A DNA stretch of 64,000 nucleotides from Eledone cirrhosa (lineage: Eukaryota). The notes under the pieces were generated by a model. That model was not told the origin of the DNA. It made no database searches and saw nothing but the letters and a program-made list of their open reading frames with translations. The translations under genes were made by a program, and so were the position numbers. Of this stretch, positions 3,702-64,000 are shown in pieces; the stretch's first letter is position 1, and each line of letters starts with the position of its first letter. Location: contig OZ024740.1 in assembly GCA_964016885.1 (NCBI GenBank), positions 370,326,001-370,390,000 of the forward strand, given 5' to 3'.

Positions 3702-4714
3702 TAGTGTGTTTTGCAATACACTGTATGCTTAATTAAAAGCATTTTGAAGACCTTACTTCATTTTTTGGGGGAGTCGTGACAGTCTCACTTACTTTATATT
3801 TTCAGCAACCGCTCTGTATAATCAGTTCCTGATTATTACTAGAATTCTATAAGAATCACCATTCATGATTTTCAGCAAAAAGGTGGAGTACATAGCTTTG
3901 GTAAGTACCAAATAGTACGAAACAGAGCTCTGTCAGCTTTATCTTCCTCTGTTTGCTGAAAATTTAAAGTAAGTGAGACTGTCACTACTCAAAAACAATA
4001 GCGTAAGGTCTTCAAAATGCTTTTAATTAAACATACAGTGTATTGCAAAATACACTATATATATATTGCTATTTTAGAGCACCAATTCTAATTTTCATTT
4101 TCTGCTTGACCAGCAACCGCTCTGTATAATCATTTCCTGATTATTACTAGAATTCTATAAGAATCAAACATTCATGATGTTCAGCAAAGAGGTGGAGTAC
4201 TTAGCTTTGGTAAATACCAAATAGTACGAAACAGAGCTCTGTCAGCTTTATCTCCCCTGTTTGCTGAAAATTTAAAGTAAGTGAGACTGTCACTACTCAA
4301 AAACAATAGCGTAAGGTCTTCAAAATGCTTTTAATTAAACATACAGTGTATTGCAAAATACACTATATATATATTGCTATTTTAGAGCACCAATTCTAAT
4401 TTTCATTTTCTGCTTGACCAGCAACCGCTCTGTATAATCATTTCCTGATTATTACTAGAATTCTATAAGAATCAAACATTCATGATGTTCAGCAAAGAGG
4501 TGGAGTACTTAGCTTTGGTAAATACCAAATAGTACGAAACAGAGCTCTGTCAGCTTTATCTCCCCTGTTTGCTGAAAATTTAAAGTAAGTGAGACTGTCA
4601 CTACTCTAAAACAATAGCGTAAGGTCTTCAAAATGCTTTTAATTGAAGCATACAGTGTATTGCAAAATACACTATATATATATTCATATATATATCGGTA
4701 TTTCAGAGCACCAA

Positions 4715-11157: not shown

Positions 11158-13735
<2,578 letters not shown>

Positions 13736-13739
<4 letters not shown>

Positions 13740-13788
13740 TTCCTGATGATTTCTAAAGAATGAAACAGTTCTAGTCCTGTAGAATCTC
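13736..13788 (+). ncRNA. Stand-alone type I hammerhead ribozyme
   Basis: gagattc-CTGATGA-tttc taaa gaat-GAAA-cag ttctagtc ctg-TA-gaatctc: 7-bp perfect stem I, 3-bp stem II with a U-U closing mismatch, 4-bp stem III, GUA site. Confidence 0.8.
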
Positions 13789-13850
13789 ATCTATATATCT
13801 ATATATATATATATATATGCATATGTATGTATATACACATACACACATAC

Positions 13851-13888
<38 letters not shown>

Positions 13889-14169
13889 TCACATATATAT
13901 ATATATATACACACATATATATACACACACACATATATATATATACACACACACATACATATATACATTACTATATATGTGTGTGTTTATCTATCTATGT
14001 AATTTATCAGCAGACAGGAGGTGTGGCTGCGCCAGTGAGGTGGAAGAGAGGGAAAGAGAGTATATACATAACTATATATGTGTGTGTTTATCTATCTATG
14101 TATTTTATCAGCAGGCAGGGTGTGTGGCTGCGCCAGTGAGGTGGAAGAGAGGGAAAGAGAGTAAGTTAG

Positions 14170-14406
14170 AGTTGTCCGGATTTTTGCCTCTGGTGTTCCA
14201 ATTATCGATTTTTCGAAAATTTAATGTAGCGCACGTTTATCCCCGGATCAAAATACACACGTGCGTCGAGTTTTCGAAATTTTCAAGTAGCCTATTCCAC
14301 TCTATGCGTTGAGTTTTATATTTGTGAGGTTTCATGAAAATTGGATGAACGGTGTAGCATGCAAGTTGGGAACACCAAACAATGCCCATCTTCACTTTAT
14401 ATATAA
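14170..14406 (-). mobile_element. Second copy of the Helitron 5' terminal region
   Basis: Near-identical to 13095-13377 with an internal deletion. Ends cttcactttatatataa on the plus strand. Confidence 0.85.
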
Positions 14407-14528
14407 TATATATGTATTCAAAGTTACATTTTAAACTTAGCTCCGTTTAAATGGTTATTTATCTAATCAATTTCTACCAACTAAGAATATAAATTAGATA
14501 AACTTTATCTGACTGTTCTTCAAAATTG

Positions 14529-15708: not shown

Positions 15709-16050
15709 GTATATATATATAGGAACGAGTAGGACCCCGACGGCTGAGCTCAAGCCGTTTCGACGGCTAATTCTGAGAATTAGCCGTCGAAACGGCTTGA
15801 GCTCAGGCGTCGGGGTCCTACTCGTTAATATTACCCACTCTACTACCCTAAGTATTGAGTACTTTGGTGCGTTATGGTCCACCTGGTTCCGTACCACATT
15901 TCCTTCGTTATATATATATATATATATGTATATATATGTATATATATATATGTATGTATATATATATATATGTATGTATATATATCTATATATATGTATG
16001 TATATATATATATATATATATGTATGTCTATATATATATATGTATGTGTG

Positions 16051-16909: not shown

Positions 16910-19502
16910 TTATCTCTTTCTCTTAATTTCGAGTATATTTTTTTTGACCGGCCACCTTCCTGGTGGCAAGGTTGTAAAAGAAAAGAAATTGTCATCCCTT
17001 GAATCGCAAGAATGTTTTGCAAATTTTGAAGGTGCCAGCTATCGCAGCCATTTGTAGACTATGAATTAGGGAGCTTGGCTTTTTGTCCGCAAATCCAAGT
17101 TGAGTCATACTTTGGTCCAAGCGGGTTGGTATATAACCCGTAGCTCCAATAATGATGGGTATGAAGCTAAATGCGTATCTTGGATACTGGATTTGTAAAC
17201 CCCTCATAAATGGTCCGTAGATGTCCTCCTTCTCCTGTATTTTTCTGACAACGTTTTCATCAAGTGGGCAGCAGATCTCCACAACAGAACACGTTTTCAA
17301 TGTGTGGTCCCAAACAACAACATCAGGCCGGTTGTGCTTTAATTTGGTGGCAGTTTTTATTTTCAGGTTCCACCAGTATTCCTTAGTGCCATCTGTCTCA
17401 ATATATTCTTCCTCGTTTGTTGTTAATGTTGTTTTACGAAGTGTGTTCCAGATGGTTCTAGCTATCCCATCGTGTCTCATGGGGAGGTAGTAGCGAGATG
17501 ACATTCTTTCGCAGCTGGCAACAATGTGGCTTACATCCTCGATCTTTGTTTTACATAGCCTACATTTATTGTCAGCTGCTGGCCCTCCTCTTTTGTGCAG
17601 CAGATATTTGGTAGGGAGTTCTTGTTCCTGTATTGCATAGAGATATCCTTCAAGGTGTTATGTCATAAACCTGTCGGAACTCCATGCCAGGCTTTTTGAG
17701 TGGTTTATCCCCTATATGGTCTGTGTTTTACGCCTAAAGTATCCATGCACAACTTTTTCTGTAAATTGGTCAATTTTTTTATCTTGTTTGAACATTGTAT
17801 AGGATCTTCCGATTTCTCTGGGTGAGAGATTTATATTAGGCTTTATTCCATATCTCTCCTCCAGATCAGTCGCTATTCTAATGATATTTTTTTTTCATGC
17901 TCATAAACCTGGGCAAGATGGTTGCCAACCTTTTTCCTCTGTTGAAGGTGTTGCTTCTGTGTTAATATCCGGGTCTCATATGTTGTTAATATTGAATTTA
18001 GACCCCGGCCACCTTCCTTGCGTGAGAAGTATAGCCTATCCACATCACCATTGATGTTAAAGTTCCCAGTAACACTGAGAAGTTTTCGAGTTCTAACATC
18101 CATCTCACTTAGTTCTTGCAATGACCAGTTCAGCAGGCCAAATGTTGGCGTTAGAATTGGCACAGCATAAGTATTGTGGGCAATGTATTTGTTGTATGCT
18201 GACAATTCTGATGACCATATTTTCTTTACTCTTCTGAGGTATTCAGTTCTGGTTCTCTCCTTATTTATGGGTCCATCATATCTGACATTCTCATCCTGTC
18301 CAAGATATCTGTAGTTGTTATCTGACTGTAGAGGTTATATTGTCAGGCCGTTCTTCTCTAGATTTCTAGAGGAGGGCACAGCTCTTCCACGTTTTACTGC
18401 CAAATATGCACACTTGGACTCACCAAATTTCATTTTGATGTCGGTTGAAAGTTGTGTAATGAGGTCCAATTGTTTCTTGAATTCATTGATATTTGGCCCA
18501 TACAACTTCAGGTCATCAACAAAGAAAAGATGGGAGATACTTTTGGGCCCACTTCTTTGTCCACCTTGTTTCCTGAGTAGGTAAGATAGTGGATTCAGTG
18601 AGAGAACGAAGAGTAGCACTGGCAAGCTATCACTCTGAAAGATGCCCTTCTGGTAATGTATCTTATCAGTCTTAACTTGCTCCTTCTCACCTCTAAGGAT
18701 CAAATTGGTGTACCAGTTCTTGGTCAGGCGTTCAACAGCAGCTACCAATTGTTGTGGGACTTTAGCTAACTGTAAAGCCTTAATAATCCACCCATGAGGT
18801 AGCACAGTGATCCTGTAAGAACAGGTTAAGGCACCCAGTATATAATTTATACATGATGTTTTGGCAGGCTATTGGACGGTAATCTTTAGCAAGGGTGGTT
18901 TGGCTATTTTGGGGAATGAGGAGGGTAGTGGCAGTCGATATCAATCTGGGCACTTCTTGTGTGCCTTTAATGGTTTCTGTAAACAGCCGTATGAGATCTT
19001 GCCGATAGAAAGTGAAATTCTTCAACCAGTATCCTATAATGAGGTCTGGGCCTGGCGATTTCCTATTCGACATTTGCTGTAGAGCTGTTTCCAGTATTGA
19101 CCCATCTATGTCATATTGTTTTGTCTGGACATGTTGGCAGTAGTCCTATTCCAGTTCTTTTAGCCAATTAGTTTGTCTGTTGAATCCGTCATCCGTTTCC
19201 CATACAGATCTCTAGTAGCTCTCAACCTGTTCTTTTGAAGGGGTGTCGTTTACAGGGATTGAGCTTTTGCCACCGAAGCTGCGATAAACTGATTTAGGAT
19301 CTCTGGCAAACAATCTATTTAGCACTTGTCATTTATGTGCTGTTGACTTATATTTTAGTATTTCTGTTGTAGCTGTGAGTTGTTGTTTCAACTGGTGTAA
19401 TTTGGAGTTCAAAGTTTTAAATTTTGTATCTCCAAATCGTCTCTCTAACTTTTTTTTAGGTCTTCCTGGTGTCGTGTGAAGTTGCTCTCTATGTTGCATT
19501 TC
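16910..19502 (-). mobile_element. 5'-truncated, frameshifted R4/Dong-clade LINE (RT plus RLE endonuclease), lineage A
   Basis: KSPGPD, YRPIAC, GIFQSDSL, FFVDDLK, RKEGGRGL, RHD, HNRPD..VEICCP..KEDIY motifs in ORFs 16992-19073. Confidence 0.93.
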
Positions 19503-21616: not shown

Positions 21617-21676
21617 TCTTTAATTGCTAATAGTGTTTCGTCCACACTAGAAGTGGGACTCTTCAGAGCATAAAGA
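21617..21676 (-). ncRNA. Type I hammerhead ribozyme (stem III G>A variant)
   Basis: tcttta-tgct-CTGAAGA-gtcccac ttcta gtgtggac-GAAA-cacta-TT-agca-at-taaaga. Confidence 0.65.
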
Positions 21677-22487
21677 GTAAATACAAAGTATACAAGCATT
21701 GACAAAGCCAAAACAGAAGAATATATGTGGGAATACCATAAGTTGGGAGGAGTTTAAAGAGTAAAGTAAAAGGAGTAACATAAGAAAAGAGTAAAATAAA
21801 AATAAAAATAAAAATAAAAATAAAAATAAAAATAAAAATAAAAATAAAAATAAAAATAAAAATAAAAATAAAAATAAAAATAAAAATAAAAATAAAAATA
21901 AAAATAAAAATAAAAATGTTATCACTCACAGTTGGGCAAGGTTCGGTTAACATACAGCTACATACAAGTATACGCATAAGCATGAGCACCCGCATGCACC
22001 TACACACAAGCACCCGTATGCAACACATACAGTATACACTAATACAAATAACATATCATAGACGGATGGGCACAAGTTAAGAGATAGAGATAGATAAAAA
22101 ATAGATAAGAGATAGATAAAAAATAGATAAAAAATAGATAAAAAATAGATAAGAAATAGATAAGAAATAGATTAAAAAAATAGATAAAAAATAGATAAAA
22201 AATAGATAAAAGATAAAAAGTAAAAGATAAAGAATAAAATAAAATAAAATAAAATAAAATAAAGTAAAGTAAAATAAAATATACACCAGAAGATAAATAA
22301 AACAATACACCAAAAAAAATGGAGTAAAATATACACCATAAAGGAAGGTGTGGGTAAAGATAAGACTGGCAAATGCATAAGCTATCAAGCTATGTTCAAC
22401 AAGTGATATACGTACAACATATAAAATACACAAAAATATATACAAAAATATATATAAAAAATATATATAAAAGAGACATATATATAA

Positions 22488-22527
<40 letters not shown>

Positions 22528-24166
22528 CAGTCCAAGTAATGTATATTTATAAAAATGTAACTGGGGGTAAAAAGATGTAATAAGGGTAATCAAGATGGTA
22601 ATTATTAGGGCATGTAATAATAATATTATTATAGAAATCCTAAGGTGACACTAGTGTTGACTCATGCTGATATATGGAATATATCAGGAGCACACGAACG
22701 CCTTAGGTGTTGTAGTTAGCCGCAGTTCAACAATAGAGTGTTCAAATGAGATTTTTTATGAGATTTTTTATGAACAGATGCTATGTCCGCACTAGATTGA
22801 GTGGACCATTACAATGCAATGGAAACATCCCAGGATGGACAGTCCCAAAAGTTCACACTCCAAAGTTCAATCCCCAGGTGTGCATTCATAGAGTTGAGCC
22901 GTTGGGCAATCCCAAAAAGTTCACACTCCAAAGTTCAATACACAGATGTGCATTCATAGAGTTGAGCACTCAGGCAAGAATCAATTGGTTAACAAGGTGT
23001 ATCCGTATCACAAGCAGGAGCATATGCTGGGAAGGTTGCAGGCAAATTCATATACAGCAGCACGAACATCAAGAGGCAAATAACTGAGGCGCATATTAGT
23101 GAGCAGAAGCAGGCAAGTGCAGGTGGTAAAACACAGTCAGGTGAAGCAGGTTATTATGCATACCATTTAATATAAGAAAACTCAACAACGTTCACAACAA
23201 ATAGCTTCCAAAGCCGATAACCACAAAATCACAGCATTGAGCAACAATCCGGCATCGCAAGAATGTACGCAACATTAGGGTTAGTCCAGAGACAGTATAT
23301 GTATACTTATACATACACACATGCACACAGACATGTATATACAGAGACAGTATACATACACATATATACAGAGACAGTATATATATATATACACATACAC
23401 GTATATACACATAAATATATACATACACACACACACACACCGCACCGGACACCCAAATCTACGCGGATATATTACACAAAATATCTTACCCAGCTAACAA
23501 AAGTCAAAAACCCATAACAGTTGCTCTCACTGGTCGCAGATAATGTAGTTTCACAGTAAATTAGCCAGAGTAATCACGATTAATATTCAAAATAAAACCT
23601 TATGAGGAGATGCGTATTCACACGTGTAGTCACCAGATTCAAGTATAAACAAACCGTTAATAAATACGGAAGGCTATCGGGGCCAAAACGTTATTCTTGG
23701 GAGAGTTATTCTTTGGCATAGTTGGTCTGCCATAGATTGACGCTCTGTGTTATTAGTGTATACTGTATGTGTTGCATACGGGTGCTTGTGTGTAGGTGCA
23801 TGCGGGTGCTCATGCTTATGCGTATACTTGTATGTAGCTGTATGTTAACAGAACCTTGCCCAACTGTGAGTGATAACATTTTTATTTTTATTTTTATTTT
23901 TATTTTTATTTTTATTTTTATTTTTATTTTTATTTTTATTTTTATTTTTATTTTTATTTTTATTTTTATTTTTATTTTTATTTTTATTTTTATTTTTATT
24001 TTTATTTTTATTTTTATTTTTATTTTTATTTTTATTTTTATTTTTATTTTACTCTTTTCTTATTTTACTCCTTTTACTTTACTTTTTAAACTCCTCCCAA
24101 CTTATGGTATCCCCACATATATTCTTCTGTTTTGGCTTTGTCAATGCTTGTATACTTTGTATTTAC

Positions 24167-24226
24167 TCTTTATGCTCTGAAGAGTCCCACTTCTAGTGTG
24201 GACGAAACACTGTTAGCAATTAAAGA
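24167..24226 (+). ncRNA. Type I hammerhead ribozyme
   Basis: tcttta-tgct-CTGAAGA-gtcccac ttcta gtgtggac-GAAA-cactg-TT-agca-at-taaaga: bulged stem I, 7-bp stem II with G-C closing pair, minimal quasi-palindromic stem III. Confidence 0.78.
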
Positions 24227-25821: not shown

Positions 25822-25964
25822 GTATGAGCAGTTATTAAATGCAGAACTTTTAGAATGTTTTACATATTTTTACTGTTCCATTAATGGATTGTAATTGTAA
25901 TTTCCTAACTAGTCGGCTTCTTCTGTTTCTGTGAAGCCCAACTTCTCGAGATTTTTATTGAGGC
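25822..25964 (-). mobile_element. R4/Dong lineage A 3'-end fragment
   Basis: Reverse complement of ~34665-34808. Confidence 0.85.
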
Positions 25965-28940
25965 ACAGACGCTGCATGCCAGCACCATAGGAGGACCCTC
26001 TCCGTCTGGAAGTGTAACAGTAATGCCCTTCCTCACATCCCGCTTTACTTTCTCGTATGCGATTCGAGATGCCTCAAAGGCAACTTTTCCCTCATATACA
26101 GTCTTTCTCCATTTATTACGATCAGCAGCAATATTTTCCCATGTATCAGCAGAGATGTCTTTCAAGGAAGCTTTCAAGGAATCTTTATACCTCTTTTTTG
26201 GTTTATGTGGCGGTCGTTTTCCTTTAACCAACTCTCCATAAAAGAGTTGTTTTGGTATTCTAGAATCCTTCATTCTGGCAAGGTGACCACTCCAACGGAG
26301 TCGTTGCTTAAGCACAAGAGCTTCTATACTGTCACACATAGAGCTTTCCAAAATCTCGACATCACTGATGTGGTACCTCCAGTGAACGCCATGGATCCGT
26401 CTGAGACACATCTGATGGAAACGCTCCAATTGCTTAAGGTGGTGTCGATATGTGACCCAGGTCTCGTAGGCATAAAGAAGACAAGAGAGCACACATGCCT
26501 TGTACACCTTTACCTTTGTCCTCCTGCATATGTCTCGCCGGCCCCAGAGTCGCCTTTCTAGCTTTCCGAAAGCATCACTTGCTTTCCTAATCTAAGTGAG
26601 ATTTCACCGTCAAGGTTGCTGTATCGATTGACAGTGCTTCCCAGGTAGACAAACTGATCAACCACTCCAAGTCGTTTACCATACACATAGATATTTGGTT
26701 CAGTGTACTGCTTACCAGGGTAGATTGGTACATGACGACGGTTTTCTTGAGACTGACAGTCAATCCTAGGACAGTGCAAGCGTCAGAAAATGCATTCAAA
26801 ATGTGCTGCATATCACTCTCTGTGTGCGCTAAAAGATCGCAATCATCTGCATACAAGAGCTCTCTTATGATTGATATAAATACTTTTCTCTTTGCAGCAA
26901 AGCGCCTGATGGTAAATATGCTGCCTGAGGTTCGATATCGGATGTAAACACCATGCTCGCAATTCCTGAATGCAATACAGAAAACCATTGCAAAGTATAT
27001 GGCAAACAGGGTCGGTGCTGGAATATCCCTCTGTTTCACTCCATTTTTTACTGAGATAGGCTCCGACATGTTACCTCCGACATTAATCTAAGCCCTCATG
27101 TCGTCATGGAAAGACCTAACTAAAGCAAGGAACCTATCAGGGCAACCAAGTTTCTGGAGAACCTTCCATAATGCATCTCTGTTAACAGTATCGAAAGCTT
27201 TTGTCAGATCGACAAAAACCTGATACAGATCCAAACCTTGTTCCATGCACTTCTCCTGGAGTTGTCTAGCTGAGAAGATCATATCAGTAGTGCCGCGTCC
27301 AGCACGCAAACCAGATTGACTTTCAGGAAGAACACAATCTGCAATGTGTGTCAGCAGACGGTCCAGAAGCACCCTACATAAAACTTTCCCTACGACAGAA
27401 AGCAATGATATACCTCTGTAGTTCCCACAATCATTCCTGTTACCCTTTCCCTTGTACAAGACCACCATTACTGCAGTCCACCATCTGGAGACCTTCCACT
27501 GTTCAGCTTCGAGATAGCCACTGCAACCTCCACAAGCGTCGGACGTTCTGCGAGAGCTACTTTCACAGGACTTTCTGGAATGAGATTGAGGAAATCTTCA
27601 CTGACGACAGACGGCTGATTCAAAAGATCATCAAAGTTCTCTCGCTACCTTCGTAGAATTCCTTGTGAGTCACGAAGAAGTTCTTTGCCATCCTTGATGC
27701 GAGGCGGTGTCACAAGGGAAGAAGACGGTCCATAAACCTCACGCAAGAGACTGTACAACAGCTTTGTGTTATTGGAATCTGACGCAGTTTGTATCTCACC
27801 AGCCTTCTCACTCCATCACTGATCCTTCATCTGAGAAAGACTCCGCCTAACACGTGATTTGACATGCTTGAGTTCCTCATGCAACGTATTCCTCTCTTGT
27901 GGTTTTGCCGTCAAGTAGCGTGACAGAGCACGCCTCTTATCAGCCAAAAAGTCTTCTATATGTACATCATTCTCATTAAACCAGTCCTGATGTTTTCTCA
28001 GCACCAATCCCAGAACACGCCTGCCTACATCATAAACCGACTTTTTAAGGGTCGGCCAATCCTCACCAAGATCTGCAGCCTGCATCTCTTCTTCCAATGT
28101 CCTCTTCACATTGTTATCCTTAAGACGAGCAGCATTCAATCTTTTGGGCAGGGCAACACCAGGAGCCCGGATTTTACGTTTATTGATTAGTTTCACTTTT
28201 GCGCGTACCAGGCAGTGGTCCGTCCAGCACTCAGCTCCGCGAAGAGCACGAACACACTGCACATCCTGTCTTTCACGCATCCTGACTAGGACGTAGGCCA
28301 AAAGATGCCATTCCTTAGATGCAGGATGCATCCATGAATTTGTTCTTTTGTTGGAACATGGTGTTGGTAACACACAGATCCAGCTCCTCACACATCTGCA
28401 ACAGGAGCATACCATTGCTGTTACACTTTCCCACCTCATGCCTTCCGATTACATTCCATGTGTTAAAATCCCTACCCACTCTAGCATTAAAGTCACCAAG
28501 CACGATGACTTTGTCTGCCCGAGGGATATTTTTTAAAACACCTTTCAAGGCATGGTAAAAGGACACTTTTTCTTCATCGACAGAATTCATAGTTGGAGCA
28601 TACACACTCACCAGGGTCGCATATCTTCCTTTGTCCAGCGGAATTCTCATGGACATAAAACGCTCACTAATCCCTACTGGGAATTTTTCTAATTTATTAA
28701 CAAGAACAGTCTTAACAGCAAATCCTACCCAGCCTCTCTTCTGGTTCCTTCATCTCTTCCTTTCCAGAAGAATGTATATTCTCCACAAAATTCTGTAAGA
28801 TGACCATCTCGTCTCAGATAAAGCCACGATGTCAAGATCGTAACGTCGAAGCTCCTTTGCAACAAGAGCGGTCCTTCGTTCAGGACGCTCCAAGGAATCC
28901 CTGTCAAGCAGCGTCCGTACGTTGCAGCAGCCAAGACTAA
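25965..28940 (-). mobile_element. Decayed RTE-clade LINE (APE endonuclease plus RT)
   Basis: VSVYAPT, LGDFNARVG, TDH, YRGISLL, FVDLTKAFD, LLYADD, LRWSGH..RIPKQLFYGEL in ORFs 25905-28934. Confidence 0.95.
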
Positions 28941-29175: not shown

Positions 29176-30280
29176 TAGGAAGCTATTGACTATCTACAAC
29201 ATAGGAAGCTATTGACTATCTACAACATGTTCCACAAGAGGAGTGATGTCGATAGACTCTACTTAAGGAGATCTGAAGGTGGAAGAGGTCTTATCAGCAT
29301 AGAGGACTGTGTTCAGATGGAAAAAAACAACCTACACACATACGTGACTGATAGTAAGGAGCCAATGCTCAGAACTGTACTGAAGGAGGGGACAATAAGC
29401 CAGAGGATGTCCAAGGAAGAAATAACATCAAGGAGAAAGAGCAGCCTTCAGGAAAAATCCCTTCATAGTACCTTCTTTGAGAAAACTGAATTTAGAGATC
29501 CACAGACATGGAACTGGTTGAAAAGAGGAGACCTTAAAAAGGCTACAGAAGGAATGTCAATGGCTGCGCAGGAGCAGGCCCTCAAAGCGAAGTGGTTGAA
29601 ACACCATATTTACAAGGAGGAGGCTAGCCCACTGTGCAGGATCTGTGGAGAGAGAGAGGAGACTGTGGCTCACATTGTATCCGAGTGTAAACACCTAGCC
29701 TAGACTCACTATAAGGGCTGGAGACATGGTGTGATGGGCAGGGTGATCCACTGGCACTTATGCAAAGTAAACAATTTACCACATTCTGAGAAGTGGTATG
29801 AGCATAAGCCAGAGGCGGTGATAGAAAACGATCAGGTGAAGGTGCTGTGGGATTTTAGGATACAGACGGACAAGAAACTGGAACACAATAGACCTGACCT
29901 GGTGGTTGTGGACAAAGGCAAAAGATCGTGCCTGATTGTGGATGTGGCCTGCCCATTCGACACGAGAGTGCAAGAGAAGGAGAGGGAGAAAATTAACCGA
30001 TACCAGGACTTAAAGTGGGAGGTAAAAAGGATTTGGAACTACCATGAAGTCAAAGTGATCCCGATTGTCATAGGCGCACTAGGGACTATCTCAAAAAGTT
30101 TCCAGGGATGGTTAAAGAAAATTGGCCCCTTCACGCTTTTTGGAACGCTTCAAAAGGCATGCTTGCTGGGAACAACAAGAACCCTCCGATCCGTCCTGAA
30201 TATCTGAGGCTGCAGGTAGTGGGTTGATATTCATTTATATAACATCAATGACTGAGACTCAAAGAGTAATAACAATAATA
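29176..30280 (+). mobile_element. 5'-truncated R4/Dong-clade LINE, lineage B, inserted in (TAA)n
   Basis: RSEGGRGL, CRICGEREETVAHIVSEC zinc knuckle, HNRPD..DVACP..KINRY RLE. (TAA)n on both sides. Confidence 0.93.
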
Positions 30281-31810: not shown

Positions 31811-34305
31811 AAGAAAACACCAGGAAGAGACATGATTGTCGGCTACCTGGTACAAAAAGCTGATATTCTATCGGAGGTAACTTACTGACCTCTACAAACA
31901 AGTTCTTAAGGGAGATACACTTATACCAGAATGTTTGACATTAGCACAAACATTGCTGGTCCCCAAGAACAAAGACACCCACTTGGCAAAAAAACTACCT
32001 ACCCATTGCATGCCAGAACCTGATGTATAAGATGAATACAGCCTGTCTGAACCTATTCCTCCAAGATCACTGTGAAAATAATAACATCATCACAGATGAA
32101 CAAGCAGCTGGAAAGAAAGGGGTTTGGGGATGTGCTGAACAACTCCTAATCAACAAAACTGCGATGTCGGAGGTGCGACAACTTAGGCGGAATATGACTA
32201 CAGTCTGGCTGGACTACAGGAAAGCTTTCGATTCTGTTCCCCACTCTTGGGTGGTAGAGGCCCTCCAACTTGCTAAAGTCCCAGACATTATTGTCAGAAC
32301 CATAGAGAGAATGTCTTCTTCTTGGGCTACTATCCTAAGGTTAAAGGCAGAGAGGGAGGACTCTATTTTCACTGATAAAATAAAATATTGCAGGGGTATA
32401 TTTCAGGGGGACAGTCTCTCTGTGATATTATTCATCTTGTCATTAAACCCCTTGTCCTTTCTGCTCAAGAAATGTGAGGGATACATCATTGGCTCACAGG
32501 AGGACAGAAATACGAACCTAACGCATAATTTCTTTGTGGACGATCTGAAACACTATGCCAAGAACATGGATGGATGAAGAAAAATCTTGACCTGGTTACA
32601 ACGTTCTCAAAGGATATAGGAATGGAGTTTAGCCAAGATAAATGCTCATACATGACTGTAAAGCGGGAAAAACAACAGCCCAATCTAGCAACATTGTCAT
32701 CAATGGCCTAACTGTTTCACCGATATCTGATGAGGACTGCTACAGATACCTGGGGATAGATGACAACATATCCTATAATGGCATATGTAATAAAGAACGC
32801 GTAACCAGGTAATACTACACCTGATTAGGAAAGATCAGGTCATCGGAACTCTCTGCGCAAAACAAAACAGTGGCTCACAATGTGATTTCTGTGCCTGTCC
32901 TAACACCAACGTTTGGAATACTCAATTGGACGATAGACGAAATCCGAGCAGTTGGTGTTGGAACTCGAAAAATACTGGACAACACACGGAAACTTCCACA
33001 TCAACAGTGAAATAGACCGCCTTTACTTGAAACGTAAGCAGGGAGGCAGAGGCCTAACATCAGTCCAGACAACATTTGAATGTCGCATCATATCTCTCCG
33101 ACACCATCTACGAACCTCGAAGCGTAGGAGCCCGTTTCTCGAGCAAGTCTATCTGCATGAAACAGATAAGATCATGAGAGTTGGGAAGGAACTCCTTGAG
33201 AGATATTCCCTGTGTGATAATCAAAAACTCACCCCCAGGGATGTCACTCAGCAGTATCGCAGTGAAGCCATGGATGAAAAACTGCATGCCTATCAGCAAA
33301 AAAATCATGCATGGATATGTTGCCAGGAAGCTCCAGTGTGAGAGTAATATAGATAAGGAAAGTAGTCTATCTTAGACCAACAACCGCTATATTGGCTCTC
33401 ACTTTGAGGATACGCTTTCGCAATCCAGAAACAGGAGATTAGCACGAAATACCTGATTCACAAAAGAGATAGGGATGCAGGCAAAACACCTAAATGTGAT
33501 AACAAGTGCAGACTCTGCAGAACTATCATCGAGGGTATCAACCATGTCATCAGCAGCTGTCCAAAGATGTCATCGCAGTACTATCTATCTATGAGGCATG
33601 ATGTAGTGGCCAAAACACTGTACAATGCAGTTCGTAAAAAAGATAGCCCCGATAATAAACACATTAAAAGCTACAACAATGTACATAATATGAAAGAGTA
33701 CTGGTGGAATGTTGCAGTAAAAACCCCAATAAAATGCACGCATAACAGACCAGATATTATGATATGGGACAGGGAGAAGAAAACATGCACAGTAGTGGAC
33801 ATTAGCTGCCCAGCAGATGCCAATATAATATCAGTGAAAAGGAGAATATTTATGCAGAACCGATGAGAAATCTGCAGATAATCCACCCTGATTACACCTT
33901 CAGATATATGCCTGTGATTATTTGGGCACTGGGATATGTCAGTAACTGCATCAATACAAATCTTTGAAGCTAGGCTTCACAGGAACAGAAAGAACACAAC
34001 TAGTTAGGAAATTACAAGTACAATCCATTAATGGAACAGTAAAAATATGTAAAACATTCCAAAAATTTTGCATCTAATAACTGCATATACACATGTACAG
34101 ATACAAAGCATACACACAGGCACACATACAACTCAAAATATACACATTCACACATACAATAACATCCATGTCTACACATGCATGCATACATACATATCTA
34201 CGTAGTTGATGTTGTGTAAATTCCAATGAGAGAGTCTTGTGTCTATGTTAGAAACCGACTCTCTCTCTATTGGTAAAACTTTGTGAAATCATAAAACCAG
34301 AAGAA
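31811..34305 (+). mobile_element. 5'-truncated R4/Dong-clade LINE, lineage A, with (CATA)n tail to 34400
   Basis: WLDYRKAFDSVPH, GIFQGDSLS, FFVDDLK, RKQGGRGL, RHD, HNRPD..DISCP. 3'UTR hairpin ccaatgagagagtc...gactctctctattgg. Confidence 0.93.
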
Positions 34306-50270: not shown

Positions 50271-50275
<5 letters not shown>

Positions 50276-50463
50276 AACCAGTAAGACCCCGACAGCTGAG
50301 CTCAAGCCGTTTCGACGGCTAATTCTAGTCCAGAATTAGCCGTCGAAACGGCTTGAGCTCAGCTGTCGGGGTCTTACTGGTTCCTATTACCCACTCTACT
50401 ACCTCAAGTATTGAGTACTTTGGTGCGTTATGGTCCACCTGGTTCCTTACCACATTTCCTTCG

Positions 50464-50466
<3 letters not shown>
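50271..50466 (+). mobile_element. Second foldback element of the 15721 family (56-bp perfect arms, loop agtcc)
   Basis: Arms 50271-50326 and 50332-50387. GAAA-cggct tgagctc agctg-TC-gggg. Confidence 0.85.
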
Positions 50467-52619: not shown

Positions 52620-55203
52620 AATTTCCTTGGATAATCAACAAACAAGAAAGATCAGAACCTTGGTGGAAGAAACGACTGAATGGTCAAATCAAGGAAATGA
52701 GAAAAGACATTGCAAAGCTTGAGTCCTTACTGAATGGGACATTACAAAACATAGACACTAAAGACAGATTGGAAATAAAGTACAAAATTATGGGGGAAAA
52801 AGCTAAATATTATCATAGAGGAACTGAAGCAACGCATTGTAGAAAAGAGTGCAAAGGTTAGGTGGTATGAGAACAGAGTTAGTCAGTATAGACAGAACCG
52901 CATGTTTGACAACAACCAGAAGATTTTGTTTGGAGAGCTTCAAGGGAAAGAAAGAGGCAACGACGTGATCCCTGGGGCGAAACAGACTAAGACATTCTGG
53001 AGAAGAATATGGGAGCAGGATGTTGAACATAATAGTCAGGCAGTGTGGATTGCGGATGAATGTCTGATGTCGGGTGAAGTACCAGAGTGGTTGACAAAAG
53101 GTACCACAGTTCTGGTAATGAAAAACCGAATCAAGGGTAATGATGTTACCAACTATAGGCCTATCACATGTCTGTCCGTAATGTGGAAACTGTTAACAAG
53201 CATTGTGTCTGAGGAAATCTACTATCACCTCCACATAAAACAACTTGTTACCGGACGACCAGAAAGGATGCCGAAAGAAGTCTCGTAGTATAAAAGACCA
53301 GTTACTTATTCATAAAATGGTAATGAGGAATTGCAAGAGGAGGCACACTGGTCTTGCCATGGGATGGATAGATTACAAAAGGCATTCGACATGGTAGCTC
53401 ATTCTTGGATAACCAAAAGCCTAGAGATCTTCAAGGTGACAGATAACATCAGACAGTTGTTGAGCAAAAGTATGAAGTCCTGGGAAACAGAGTTAACATC
53501 AGGTGGAGAATCCTTGCTAGGTGTGAAGATCAAGAGAGGTATCTTCCAGGGAGATAGTTTGTCCCCTCTGCTGTTTGTCCTTTCCCTGATACCCCTGTCC
53601 GTTATATTGCGAAATGTGAGAGCAGGAAACAAGTTGGGAAGAGGAGAGCTACCATCAACCCCCTCCTCATGGATAATCTTAAACTCTTTGGGAAGAGTGA
53701 GAAGGAATTGAATGTACTTGTTGACACTGTCCGTATTTTCAGCAATGATATATGTATGGAATTTTGCATTAATAAGTGTGGAGTCCTAGTGATGAAGAGG
53801 GGTAAATTGAGCAGAAGCAACGGAATCCAGGTACCAACAGGTGGGATGATAAAGGAAATTGACACTGAAGAGCGGATACAAATATTTAGGTGTTCTGGAG
53901 GCAGATGACATCAAGAACAAAACAATGAAGGAATTGATAAGATCTGAGTACATAAGGAGAGTAAGTAGCGTATTAAAATCTCATCTAAATAGTAGGAATG
54001 CCATAAGTGGAGTAAATTCCCGAGCTGTGTCTATTATTAGGTACAGTGCGGGAATTGAGAAATGGAATGTTGCTGAACAAAAAGAAATGGATAGGAAGAC
54101 TAGGAAGCTATTGACTATCTACAACATGTTCCACAAGAGGAGTGATGTCGATAGACTCTACTTAAGGAGATCTGAAGGTGGAAGAGGTCTTATCAGCATA
54201 GAGGACTGTGTTCAGATGGAGAAAAACAACCTGCACAAATATGTGACTGACAGTAGGGAGCCAATGCTCAAAATTGTACTGAAGGAGGAGACAATAGACC
54301 AGGTGATGTCCAAGGAGGAAATAACAACAAGGAGGAAGAGCAACCTTCATGAAAAATCCCTTCATAGCACCTTCTTTAAGAAAACGGAATTTAGAGATCC
54401 ACAGACATGGAACTGATTAAAAAGAGGAGACCTTAAAAAAGCTACAGAAGGAATGTTAATGGCTGCGCAAGAGCAAGCCCTCAGGACGAATTGGGTGAAA
54501 CACCATATTGACAAGGAAGAGGCTAGCTCACTATGTAGGATCTGTTGAGAGACAGAGGAGACTGTGGCCCACATTGTATCCGAGTGTAAACACCGAGCCC
54601 AGACTCTCTATAAAGGCTGGAGACATGATGTGATAGGCAGGGTGATCCACTGGCATCTATGCAAAGTAAATAATTTACCACATTCTCAGAAGTGGAATGA
54701 ACATAAGCCAGAGTCGGTGATAGAAAACGATCAGGTGAAGGTGCTATGGGATTTTAGGATACAGACGGACAAGAAATTAGAACACAATAGGCCTGACCTG
54801 ATGGTTGTGGACAAGGAAAAAAGATCGTGCCTGATTGTAGATGTAGCCTGCCTATTTGACACGAGATTGCAAGAAAAGGAGAGGGAGAAAATTATCCGAT
54901 ACCAGGATTTAAAGTGGGAGTTAAAAGGGATTTGTAACTGCCATGAAATCAAAGTCGTCCCGATTGTCATAGGCTCACTAGGTACTATCTCAAAGAGTTT
55001 CCAAGGATGGTTAAAGAAGATTAGTCCAGCCCCGCTTTTTGGAACACTTCAAAAGGCATACTTGCTGGGAAAAGCAAGAACCCTCCGATACGTCCTGAAT
55101 GTCTGAGGCTGCAGGTAGCGGCTTGATATTCATTTCAACAAAATTTCCAGTTAAATAACATCAATAACTGAGACTCAAAGAACAATAATAGTAATAATAA
55201 TAA
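52620..55203 (+). mobile_element. Decayed R4/Dong-clade LINE, lineage B, with (TAA)n tail
   Basis: [51 protein letters not shown]. The 3' 1.1 kb is colinear with 29202-30280. Internal deletion near 53050. Confidence 0.93.
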
Positions 55204-62042: not shown

Positions 62043-62559
62043 CATGGGTGTGCGTGTTTGGATGGGTGGATGTGTATGCATGTGTATGTGTGTCCAGCTG
62101 TATCTGTGTGTGAGTTTCTGCGTGTATGTTAAGAAAGTGAAGCAGATAGAATTATGTATGTTCATAAATGTTTGCATCACGCATCACGAGCTTTAAGTCT
62201 TGTAAGGCACCATCGTGTCTCCATCTACAGAGAACGTGTGATACTTATAATGTTGAATTGACTTTATTACGTTGTGACAATTACTGGTTAACTACTGGAC
62301 TTTCAGAGTGATACTTTCATAGCTCATTAAATCGTTTGTTCGTATTATTTTATCTTTCTGTGCAAATGAAGCCAGCGGAACGCATCGCTCTACCATATAT
62401 ACCTATAGGAGAAAATCGAGCACTCGGCAGGAAGATTACGGATTTAACGAAGCATTCATCTACACTACAAACACACTGGTGGTTACAGTCGGGATTTGTC
62501 TATATGTATAGACTGGTTTCAGTTGTTAGACTACAGTCATGCTGGGGAAACACCTAATT

Positions 62560-62620
62560 ATATACGCGTTTTGGCTTGTTAACCCACTATGTGATTGGTC
62601 TTCTAAGCCTCTCTGCATGT
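62560..62620 (-). ncRNA. Decayed hammerhead-like motif
   Basis: gcagaga-ggctt...aagcc-AAAA-cgcg-TA: stem II and palindromic stem III ACGCGT are kept, both core boxes are mutated. Confidence 0.35.
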
Positions 62621-62647
62621 CACAGCTGTTCATTGAGTGGCTTGAGT

Positions 62648-62686
<39 letters not shown>

Positions 62687-62796
62687 TATGTATATACATG
62701 CATATATATATATATACATATATATATATACATACATATATATATACATATATATATATATACATATATATACATACATGCATATATATATATATA

Positions 62797-64000
62797 TAAA
62801 ACTGGGAACCTCTACTTCGTCAACCCCGACAGATTCCACACACTGATCAGGAGCAGCTTAAACTCCACCTATAAAAAGGCTAACCACTCAAGCATCGAGG
62901 ACATAAATCGAGATGGACAACAAATTACCTCCAGCCTCGGGGTCGCCGACCGCTGGGAACCCCTAGACCCACGGACACCCTACTTCACACTGAAGGACCA
63001 CAAATCTGATTTCGACCGTAAACCATCTATTAGGCTTATAAACTCAATGAAGTCCGACATAGGGAGAATCAGTAAAAAAATCCTAGACCGCGTTATACCA
63101 AAATTTAAGCAAAACACTAGACTTAGCCTATGGGTCAACACCCAGGAAGTAATCTTATGGTTCAGCAATATGGAGGACAAACGAGACACAAAATTCATCC
63201 ACTTTGACATAGAGAGTTACTATGCTTCAATTACCTTACCGCTCCTTACGGCCGCCTTGTACTTTGCCGAGACACTTGCGCCCATTACCGACCAGGAAAG
63301 AAATATCATCCTCCACGCCAGGAAGCCAGTCTACTTTTCGACAACTCCAAATGGATAAAGAGAGCTCCCGACTCCCCCTTCGACGTCTGTATGGGCGCGA
63401 CGGATTCGGCTGAGGTCACAGATCTTATAGGATTATTCCTACTAGTTAAACTCACCGATATGTTTCCACATTTGGCGGTGGATTGTACCGGGATGATGGG
63501 CTCCTTACCCTTAAAGGGTACAACCCCAGTAGTACAAACCGGGTCCGTAAACAATTAATTAGCTTCTTCCGCGACTGGGGATTTAAAATAATCCTACAAA
63601 CGTCCCTAACCCGAGTAAACTTCCTGGACGTTACCCTTGACCTCGATAATGACCTGTACTACCCATACAGGAAACCCAACGACAACCTGCACTACATCCA
63701 CCGCCGGTCAAACCATCCTAGAAACATCACCAATAACCTGGTTAAAAACATCTCCCTCCGCATATCTCGTTTGTCCGCTAATGAGCAGATATTCGAGGAA
63801 CATGCGCCTTATTACAACCAGGCCCTCAAGCGGAGTGGCTCCGGAAGAAATATCCTACTGTCCAGCTTCCATTAGCGGAACCAGCAGGCGACACCGCCGC
63901 TCACGCAACGTAACGTGGTTCAATCCTCCCCACAACGCCGAGGTGACAGCACCTATCGGGAAAATCTTCTTTAGGCTCATCGAAAACACTTCCCACTACA
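62797..64000 (+). mobile_element. 5'-truncated Penelope-like element RT (Naiad-like), starting in (TA)n and running off the window
   Basis: [67 protein letters not shown], with two frameshifts. Confidence 0.88.

Follow-up and report, generated by a model that had tools for sequence, protein, structure and literature searches.

A Hammerhead Ribozyme between Microsatellites of Eledone cirrhosa: A Probable Stub of a Penelope-like Retrotransposon Carried by a Helitron

The hammerhead motif and its surroundings

Inspection of the sequence confirmed a type I hammerhead on the plus strand at 13736-13788 of the window, the 64,000-nt stretch of Eledone cirrhosa DNA analysed here. It lies between microsatellites, within or near the following features.

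13736-13788, plus strand: type I hammerhead motif, recognised by its sequence and by a descriptor; stem I is changed on both sides in sister families
13737-13791, plus strand: stub derived from an element, assigned to the pseudo-LTR of a Hydra-clade Penelope-like element (PLE); identical to the pseudo-LTR of full-length elements, with 1,776 matches that end in the same way
13728-13739, plus strand: (GA)6 junction repeat, of which the last unit is the element's own GA and the rest is non-native; a promoter occupies the native upstream position
11158-14408, minus strand: putative composite non-autonomous Helitron-type host, with six matching siblings
About 13679-13715 and 13819-13857 (13679-13857 overall), no strand: inverted microsatellite arms of the host, flanking the central (AT)n that contains the stub
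260-422: remains of a back-to-back pair from a related hammerhead pseudo-LTR, with a minus arm at 322-260 and a tailed plus arm at 329-422

The motif has the CUGAnGA and GAAA boxes, the UH site, the three stems and the open stem I of its type. Stem I comprises 7 bp (GAGAUUC, 13736-13742, with GAAUCUC, 13782-13788), and the core boxes are CUGAUGA (13743-13749) and GAAA (13762-13765). A U at 13750 faces a U at 13761 and closes a 3-bp stem II (13751-13753 with 13758-13760) capped by a UAAA loop. Stem III is formed by 4 bp (13765-13768 with 13777-13780) and an 8-nt loop centred on CUAG. Cleavage is predicted at the GUA site, after 13781.

A type I descriptor run over the window returned this motif and one weak minus-strand match at about 5878. 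The mean over 100 local shuffles was 0.02 matches per shuffle, and any match at all was obtained in 2 of them. An exact 32-nt piece of the core has 9,206 matches in the 3.0-Gb genome (5,610 forward and 3,596 reverse), compared with 0 for the reversed 32-mer. The preliminary description of this DNA, which had proposed a genuine hammerhead belonging to a family, is borne out on both points. No Rfam model matched the motif above threshold; the best was a partial match to the type III model Hammerhead_3 (10.9 bits, E 7.2, against a gathering score of 48.5). For the whole window, the best 150 of 352 Rfam matches were all below threshold, nearly all to miRNA models on microsatellites, with no ribozyme among them. 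These miRNA matches were rejected as microsatellite hairpins.

The G10.1-C11.1 pair is absent. The U-U pair replaces it in sister families and, by construction of the 32-mer, in all 9,206 exact matches. At the three sister-family loci compared (L057, L048 and L177), both sides of stem I are changed and loop II varies, and the core, the U-U pair and stem II are unchanged. By our count, the same type, with U after CUGAUGA and U before GAAA, occurs in 14 of the 25 Hydra-clade families listed in File S2 of PMC8557442. The idea of a damaged pair in need of repair was therefore dropped; on these comparisons, the U-U pair is the native state of the family.

The predicted activity of a single copy is low. 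At the level of secondary structure, the active fold of the monomer reaches −7.1 kcal/mol against −10.5 kcal/mol for a misfold and is adopted by about 0.15% of the ensemble whether or not the flanks are included. For two copies, the cofold energy is −27.0 kcal/mol, compared with 2 × −10.5 kcal/mol for separate molecules; in this secondary structure, stem III is formed in trans, and stem II shifts its register and pairs with the core GAA. Two positions separate the stem III region from a perfect palindrome, as first described, and in these models its near-palindromic sequence favours the dimer. In the predicted structure, the flanks of the window copy form a long hairpin that holds stem I shut. 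For the minimal type, single PLE ribozymes were reported not to cut in vitro (PMC4209133), and the ribozyme of an anole element was reported to cut only with the protein of the element (PMC11167929).

Other mobile sequences were seen in the window. Two back-to-back pairs with one-sided tails (15715-15900 and 50274-50465) represent another TA-inserting family; they are joined inside a hammerhead core, and their tail shares a short motif with the tail of the stub's family. A broken ORF at 62558-63875 carries the Hydra-type motifs TLKDHK, RLIN, LYRDDGL and NFLDVTLDL, and its first piece had no Pfam match. A 308-bp unit with a degenerate stretch resembling a hammerhead is repeated in tandem (2.9 copies) at 3803-4684; sequence related to it is present at L069, L065 and L034, and L202 contains a 310-bp tandem with an intact core in both orientations. 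This 308-bp tandem is possibly a retrozyme-like family. Near-identical segments with (AAAATA)21 and (ATTTTT)29 arrays lie in opposite orientation at 21663-22281 and 23722-24180. Fragments that resemble, by eye in the list of ORFs, reverse transcriptase (RT)/endonuclease genes of non-LTR retrotransposons are found at 16992-19145, 25905-28749, 29179-30207, 31945-33866 and 52779-55106. In about 1 Mb of sequence (loci L001-L240), a descriptor scan yielded a dozen or so further type I hammerhead families, several of which have U-U or a U after the core and a four-base palindromic stem III.

The parent element and its insertions

The motif is, on its sequence, the hammerhead of a pseudo-LTR in a Hydra-clade PLE, with the clade assigned from motifs, and the parent is a new family within this known clade. 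The intact layout comprises a TATA box, the ribozyme, a tail, a 712-aa ORF and a second pseudo-LTR about 5.3 kb on. The promoter region shared by copies upstream of the ribozyme has CCAAT-like and TATAAATA boxes, and its TATA box begins 30 nt before stem I. Promoter, ribozyme, tail and ORF are continuous at L035/L061. At L197/L198 and L199/L200, where two ribozymes are spaced by 5,285 and 5,394 bp, the order is ribozyme, ORF, microsatellite-rich 3' region, promoter and second ribozyme. Mixed (TA)/(TG) microsatellite makes up most of the 3' region in L197/L198, about 2.3 kb after the ORF; each full insertion thereby supplies new target sequence. Among the 40 scored of 5,717 candidates in a search with the L061 element, about 39 match most of its 2.7 kb at 92-100%, and several copies have uninterrupted reading frames. 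The parent insertions lie in (TA)n, with an inverted partner and a one-sided tail.

The 712-aa protein (L197) contains RWR, DKT and YRDD motifs, a CNC-x5-C linker (CxCX5C) and, near its end, CDLC (CxxC) and CMH (CxH); a VY...YIG motif is also visible. RWK replaces RWR in most aligned homologs. Homologs at E ≤ 1e-20 numbered 593 among the 7,987 scored. The Atlas neighbours of the protein carry HTH_animal, GIY-YIG and RVT_1, the latter two on part of their members. Pfam gave neither an RT nor a GIY-YIG match for the ORF, and the PDB gave no match.

Dispersed copies were sampled as the first 30 matches with an exact core, from the start of contig C1, which represent 25 insertions. Eight of these have the upstream promoter, 13 are back-to-back pairs and 4 are solo; none is bare. 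All four solo insertions carry extra tail, and (GA)3 or longer was found at none of the 25. The junction classes were assigned partly by eye, with L031, L033 and L047 placed in the promoter class and L057 in the inverted class. Most copies are back-to-back pairs in (TA)n with unequal arms, and in each of the five pairs viewed from both sides, one arm is long and the other short. Copy boundaries, which the preliminary description had proposed to examine, were compared: of 22 matches without the promoter, 21 have their 5' boundary no more than 8 nt from the core, and the 3' ends recur at about +55-60, +67 and +133-137, where +1 is the first stem I base. In the one copy folded, a hairpin forms 5 nt beyond the +67 end, and a second hairpin was not clear. 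The type of 3' end seen in the window (ATC, then TA) has 1,776 matches in the genome. Thirty copies with this short end were fetched and, by eye, 24 are in back-to-back pairs, 6 have a promoter and none is bare.

The stub of the window fits this pattern. It starts with the first stem I base and stops at ATC, the shortest of the recurrent 3' ends; the TATAT that follows, up to 13796, is common to the element and the TA target. The element-derived sequence thus continues at least 3 nt past 13788 (ATC, 13789-13791), and the account of a bare 53-nt ribozyme between microsatellites needs this qualification. The decayed relative noted earlier at 279-325 is indeed related; it is one arm of a back-to-back pair, the plus arm of which (329-422) had been overlooked. 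As it belongs to such a pair with a tail, it supports the retrotransposon reading.

The forward excess among the exact matches is explained by a satellite. Its unit of 78-80 bp consists of the ribozyme with little flank, repeated head to tail. A two-motif pattern search counted 2,254 tandem pairs on the forward strand and 1 on the reverse, and those listed are mostly on C28, where the array starts from about 30,496,700. Smaller ribozyme arrays are present on C1 (C1:350,200,271, L205) and C4 (C4:230,981,923). Because this satellite lies on one strand, it accounts for the imbalance of 5,610 to 3,596, and an assembly or strand artefact was rejected. Twice the reverse count gives an estimate of about 7,200 dispersed exact matches.

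Very probably, the stub is the shortest RT product inserted into a TA repeat and was afterwards copied as a passenger of a non-autonomous Helitron; the lone copy is probably inert. The structure of the parent, the copy classes, the three recurrent 3' ends and the shared Helitron flanks were observed, and from them we infer the remaining steps. Transcription would be directed by the TATA box and, given its spacing of 30 nt, the RNA would begin at the first base of stem I. This start is placed by the TATA spacing together with the pile-up of 5' boundaries, which we take to mark where the RNA begins; an RT that stops at stem I could give the same pile-up. The endonuclease of the element would then nick the (TA)n target, and the RT would start inside uncleaved RNA at about +55-60, +67 or +133-137 and run to the RNA 5' end, so that a start at the first site would yield a ribozyme-only product. 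Usually, both target ends would be extended, giving back-to-back pairs with unequal arms, and the window insertion would have been left with a single arm. GA at the junction would have been lengthened later by replication slippage. The ribozyme of the parent RNA probably cuts as a dimer or with help from protein. One-sided tails of paired copies have been published (PMC8557442, PMC3846280), and in vitro work has tied internal RT starts on uncleaved RNA to such tails (PMC11167929). The parent family is young, with uninterrupted ORFs, a ribozyme seemingly at the transcription start and three recurrent 3' ends, and it provides a concrete system in which internal initiation and the U-U ribozymes of the Hydra clade could be tested.

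The GA junction and the Helitron host

In the native element, stem I is preceded by a C. The seventh pair of stem I, the (GA)n and the extension of stem I are therefore products of the junction. Seven perfect pairs are present, as the preliminary description held, but only six are native to the element, and the flanking tatataga/tctatata, which it had taken as a possible extension of stem I, is made by the flanking microsatellite and not by the element. The (GA)n as a part of the element was rejected because the native upstream sequence is the promoter. A pre-existing GA tract as the target was also rejected, as L168 has no GA tract and the background is 1%.

Runs of (GA)4 or longer precede only 61 copies in the genome, 51 of them independent. 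All 61 were examined: 26 have a long tail, 12 a short one, 5 are interrupted and 18 are bare. Ten of the 18 bare copies, including that of the window, share their flanks and likely represent, from this shared sequence, one insertion multiplied by a non-autonomous Helitron. Junctions joined to TA have one GA in 100 cases, two in 31 and at least four in 61, by patterns that differ in length and leave three units uncounted.

How the runs arose can be read in two ways. They could have been written at insertion: if stem I marks the exact start of the parent RNA, a telomerase-related Penelope RT that reached the capped 5' end might stutter and repeat the terminal GA as telomerase does, without later slippage. 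In that case, the genome would preserve a record of a Penelope enzyme adding repeats in the manner of telomerase. GA runs are far rarer at ordinary TA tract ends (37 of 3,586) than at the ribozyme junction, and they reach 30 units in copies only about 1-2% diverged; both observations agree with stuttering. However, GA length increases with the divergence of the copy (Spearman 0.38, p 0.008, 47 long copies), ranges from 4 to 15 units among Helitron-borne siblings of a single insertion, and has a mirror counterpart, (TC)6, that arose after insertion in sibling L101. Moreover, 10 of 29 two-unit junctions are merely truncated inverted partners. The sibling spread, the growth with divergence and the mirror TC run together favour slippage from a seed, and stuttering by the enzyme is considered unlikely. 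A literature search covering titles and the openings of abstracts found no published telomerase-like repeat addition by a Penelope enzyme.

Non-autonomous Helitrons have a 5' TC, a 3' hairpin followed by CTAG, an A/T insertion site and no ORF, and often internal microsatellite and foreign cargo. The host in the window has an outer 5' end near 14408, where the terminal TC is altered, an inner 5' end at 13379 and a 3' end made of a hairpin (11170-11185) and CTAG (11158-11161). Its six siblings (L114-L119) measure 1.26-1.42 kb and have matching ends, with TC on one side and the hairpin and CTAG on the other; the CTAG end is present in 5 of 6 and an intact TC end in 4 of 6. The ribozyme lies antisense inside the central palindromic microsatellite of sibling Helitrons. 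Its flanks are common to the 10 GA copies and to L173 and L179, in which the core or a stem is changed, so at least 12 Helitron copies carry it. The ribozyme is missing from 21 of 29 distinct loci that have the 101-bp unit of the host; these loci come from 30 rows, one of which duplicates the window, and the ribozyme is present in 8 rows, with the duplicate counted, and absent from 22. L168, which has both palindrome arms and only (AT)5 between them, could be the empty version of the host or, alternatively, a deletion instead of the pre-insertion state. In a Helitron tree built from 14 usable rows of 35 (one duplicate removed, 20 without an anchor, L168 left out), ribozyme-bearing and ribozyme-free copies fall in both clades, and the order of events is not given. 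Judged by these flanks and ends, the stub is likely a passenger of a non-autonomous Helitron.

The stub might instead be a working cis-acting ribozyme, kept to cut or terminate plus-strand transcripts or transcripts antisense to the Helitron. Its core is intact, the flank hairpin keeps stem I closed, and at least 12 Helitron copies carry it. This is very improbable in view of the small share of the active fold in the ensemble, the siblings L173, L179, L091 and L108 already changed in core or stems, and the many loci where the host unit occurs without it. No other plus-strand copy of the family lies in the window besides the decayed arm at 329, and the window ORFs of at least 120 aa are, by eye, microsatellite frames or pieces of retroelements. 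The substitution counts for 23 unanchored long arms are 4/184 for the core, 7/703 for the rest of the ribozyme and 19/1699 for the tail; in these small numbers, the dispersed cores show no sign of selection. As the window copy has no promoter, no same-strand partner and an active fold of about 0.15%, it is probably inert and would be drifting. Cleavage of a plus-strand transcript by this lone copy is unlikely on the modelled folds.

The least credible alternative, and one already largely refuted, builds on the minimal mobile unit of the preliminary description: the bare ribozyme would be non-autonomous and, as an RNA of about 55 nt resembling a retrozyme, would be transcribed, cleave itself and insert again on its own. 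Eight bare GA-flanked copies do lie at unrelated sites, and the head-to-tail arrays on C28, C1 and C4 could in principle yield short monomers; however, bare copies are the tail of a length distribution, with none among the 25 unbiased insertions or the 30 short-ended copies, have the sequence of the parent without its promoter, begin at stem I, neither at the cut site nor where the units of the 78-bp array join, and in 10 of 18 GA cases go back to one Helitron-copied event. Copies lie essentially throughout in longer pseudo-LTR contexts, the outcome that the preliminary description had named as refuting the minimal unit. Published animal retrozymes are described as tandem units of about 220-350 nt with canonical ribozymes (PMC7229834).

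The stub as a Helitron-borne RT product remains the preferred reading. Since it is likely carried inside a second mobile element and its motif is found thousands of times, it is ordinary and not a new minimal mobile ribozyme. Solo ribozymes of truncated PLEs are already published, and the finding by itself has little significance. It is a clear example of a ribozyme that belongs to one mobile element and is spread by a second; at other loci, the ribozyme has become a satellite through amplification.

Comparison with known systems

The parent agrees with the Hydra clade of C-terminal EN+ PLEs as described by Craig et al. 2021 (PMC8557442), in which almost all members have (TA)n as their target. 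Shared features are the single ORF with RW[K/R], DKT, YRDD and the CxCX5C linker, the C-terminal nuclease region with CxxC and CxH, the (TA)n target, the type I ribozyme in a pseudo-LTR, the inverted 5'-truncated partner and the one-sided tail. Differences from the clade as presented there are also seen. With a long 3' region rich in microsatellite, the parent reaches about 5.3 kb, whereas members are generally <3 kb; as the published wording is "generally", length was not taken as defining. Its tail is about 70 nt, compared with 30-40 nt in published PLEs, and the family has a third, shorter 3' end. Published stem III loops have 1-3 nt, whereas the 8-nt loop here gives a dimer helix of 4-4-4 bp with two 2x2 loops. 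The ribozyme sequence differs from that of Hydra-1_Obim. Among the publications found on hammerheads and octopus, only the preprint of the same paper was relevant.

The PLE pseudo-LTR hammerheads in Cervera and de la Pena 2014 (PMC4209133) are likewise thousands of mostly single motifs in truncated elements, with opposite-strand pairs, a palindromic stem III and predicted action as dimers; the low in vitro activity is their result. The motif departs from the consensus given there, as it has a 4-bp stem III and lacks the G10.1-C11.1 pair and a long stem II. Poseidon_Ac (Frangieh et al. 2024, PMC11167929) offers a parallel in its discrete internal RT starts, which explain the tail, and in its AT-rich targets. 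There, uncleaved RNA is the template, and intact ribozymes are therefore inserted. Poseidon_Ac belongs to a different clade, and its starts lie 111-118 nt into the ORF, whereas all three ends of the present family are upstream of the ORF.

Animal non-LTR retrozymes, as presented in PMC7229834 and bioRxiv 10.64898/2026.07.22.740005, share with the window copy a type I ribozyme, no coding capacity and a probable dependence on PLEs. Unlike these tandem units of a few hundred nt, which by definition stand apart from a coding element, the window copy occurs singly and is identical at every base to an autonomous element; the 78-bp arrays agree with retrozymes only in being tandem.

A search of the literature on Helitron capture returned no title on a Helitron-borne retroelement ribozyme. 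The host resembles non-autonomous Helitrons in its end features, its insertion beside A/T, its lack of an ORF, its internal microsatellite and its carriage of foreign sequence. It differs from the known ones in its cargo, which is the ribozyme of a retroelement in antisense orientation.
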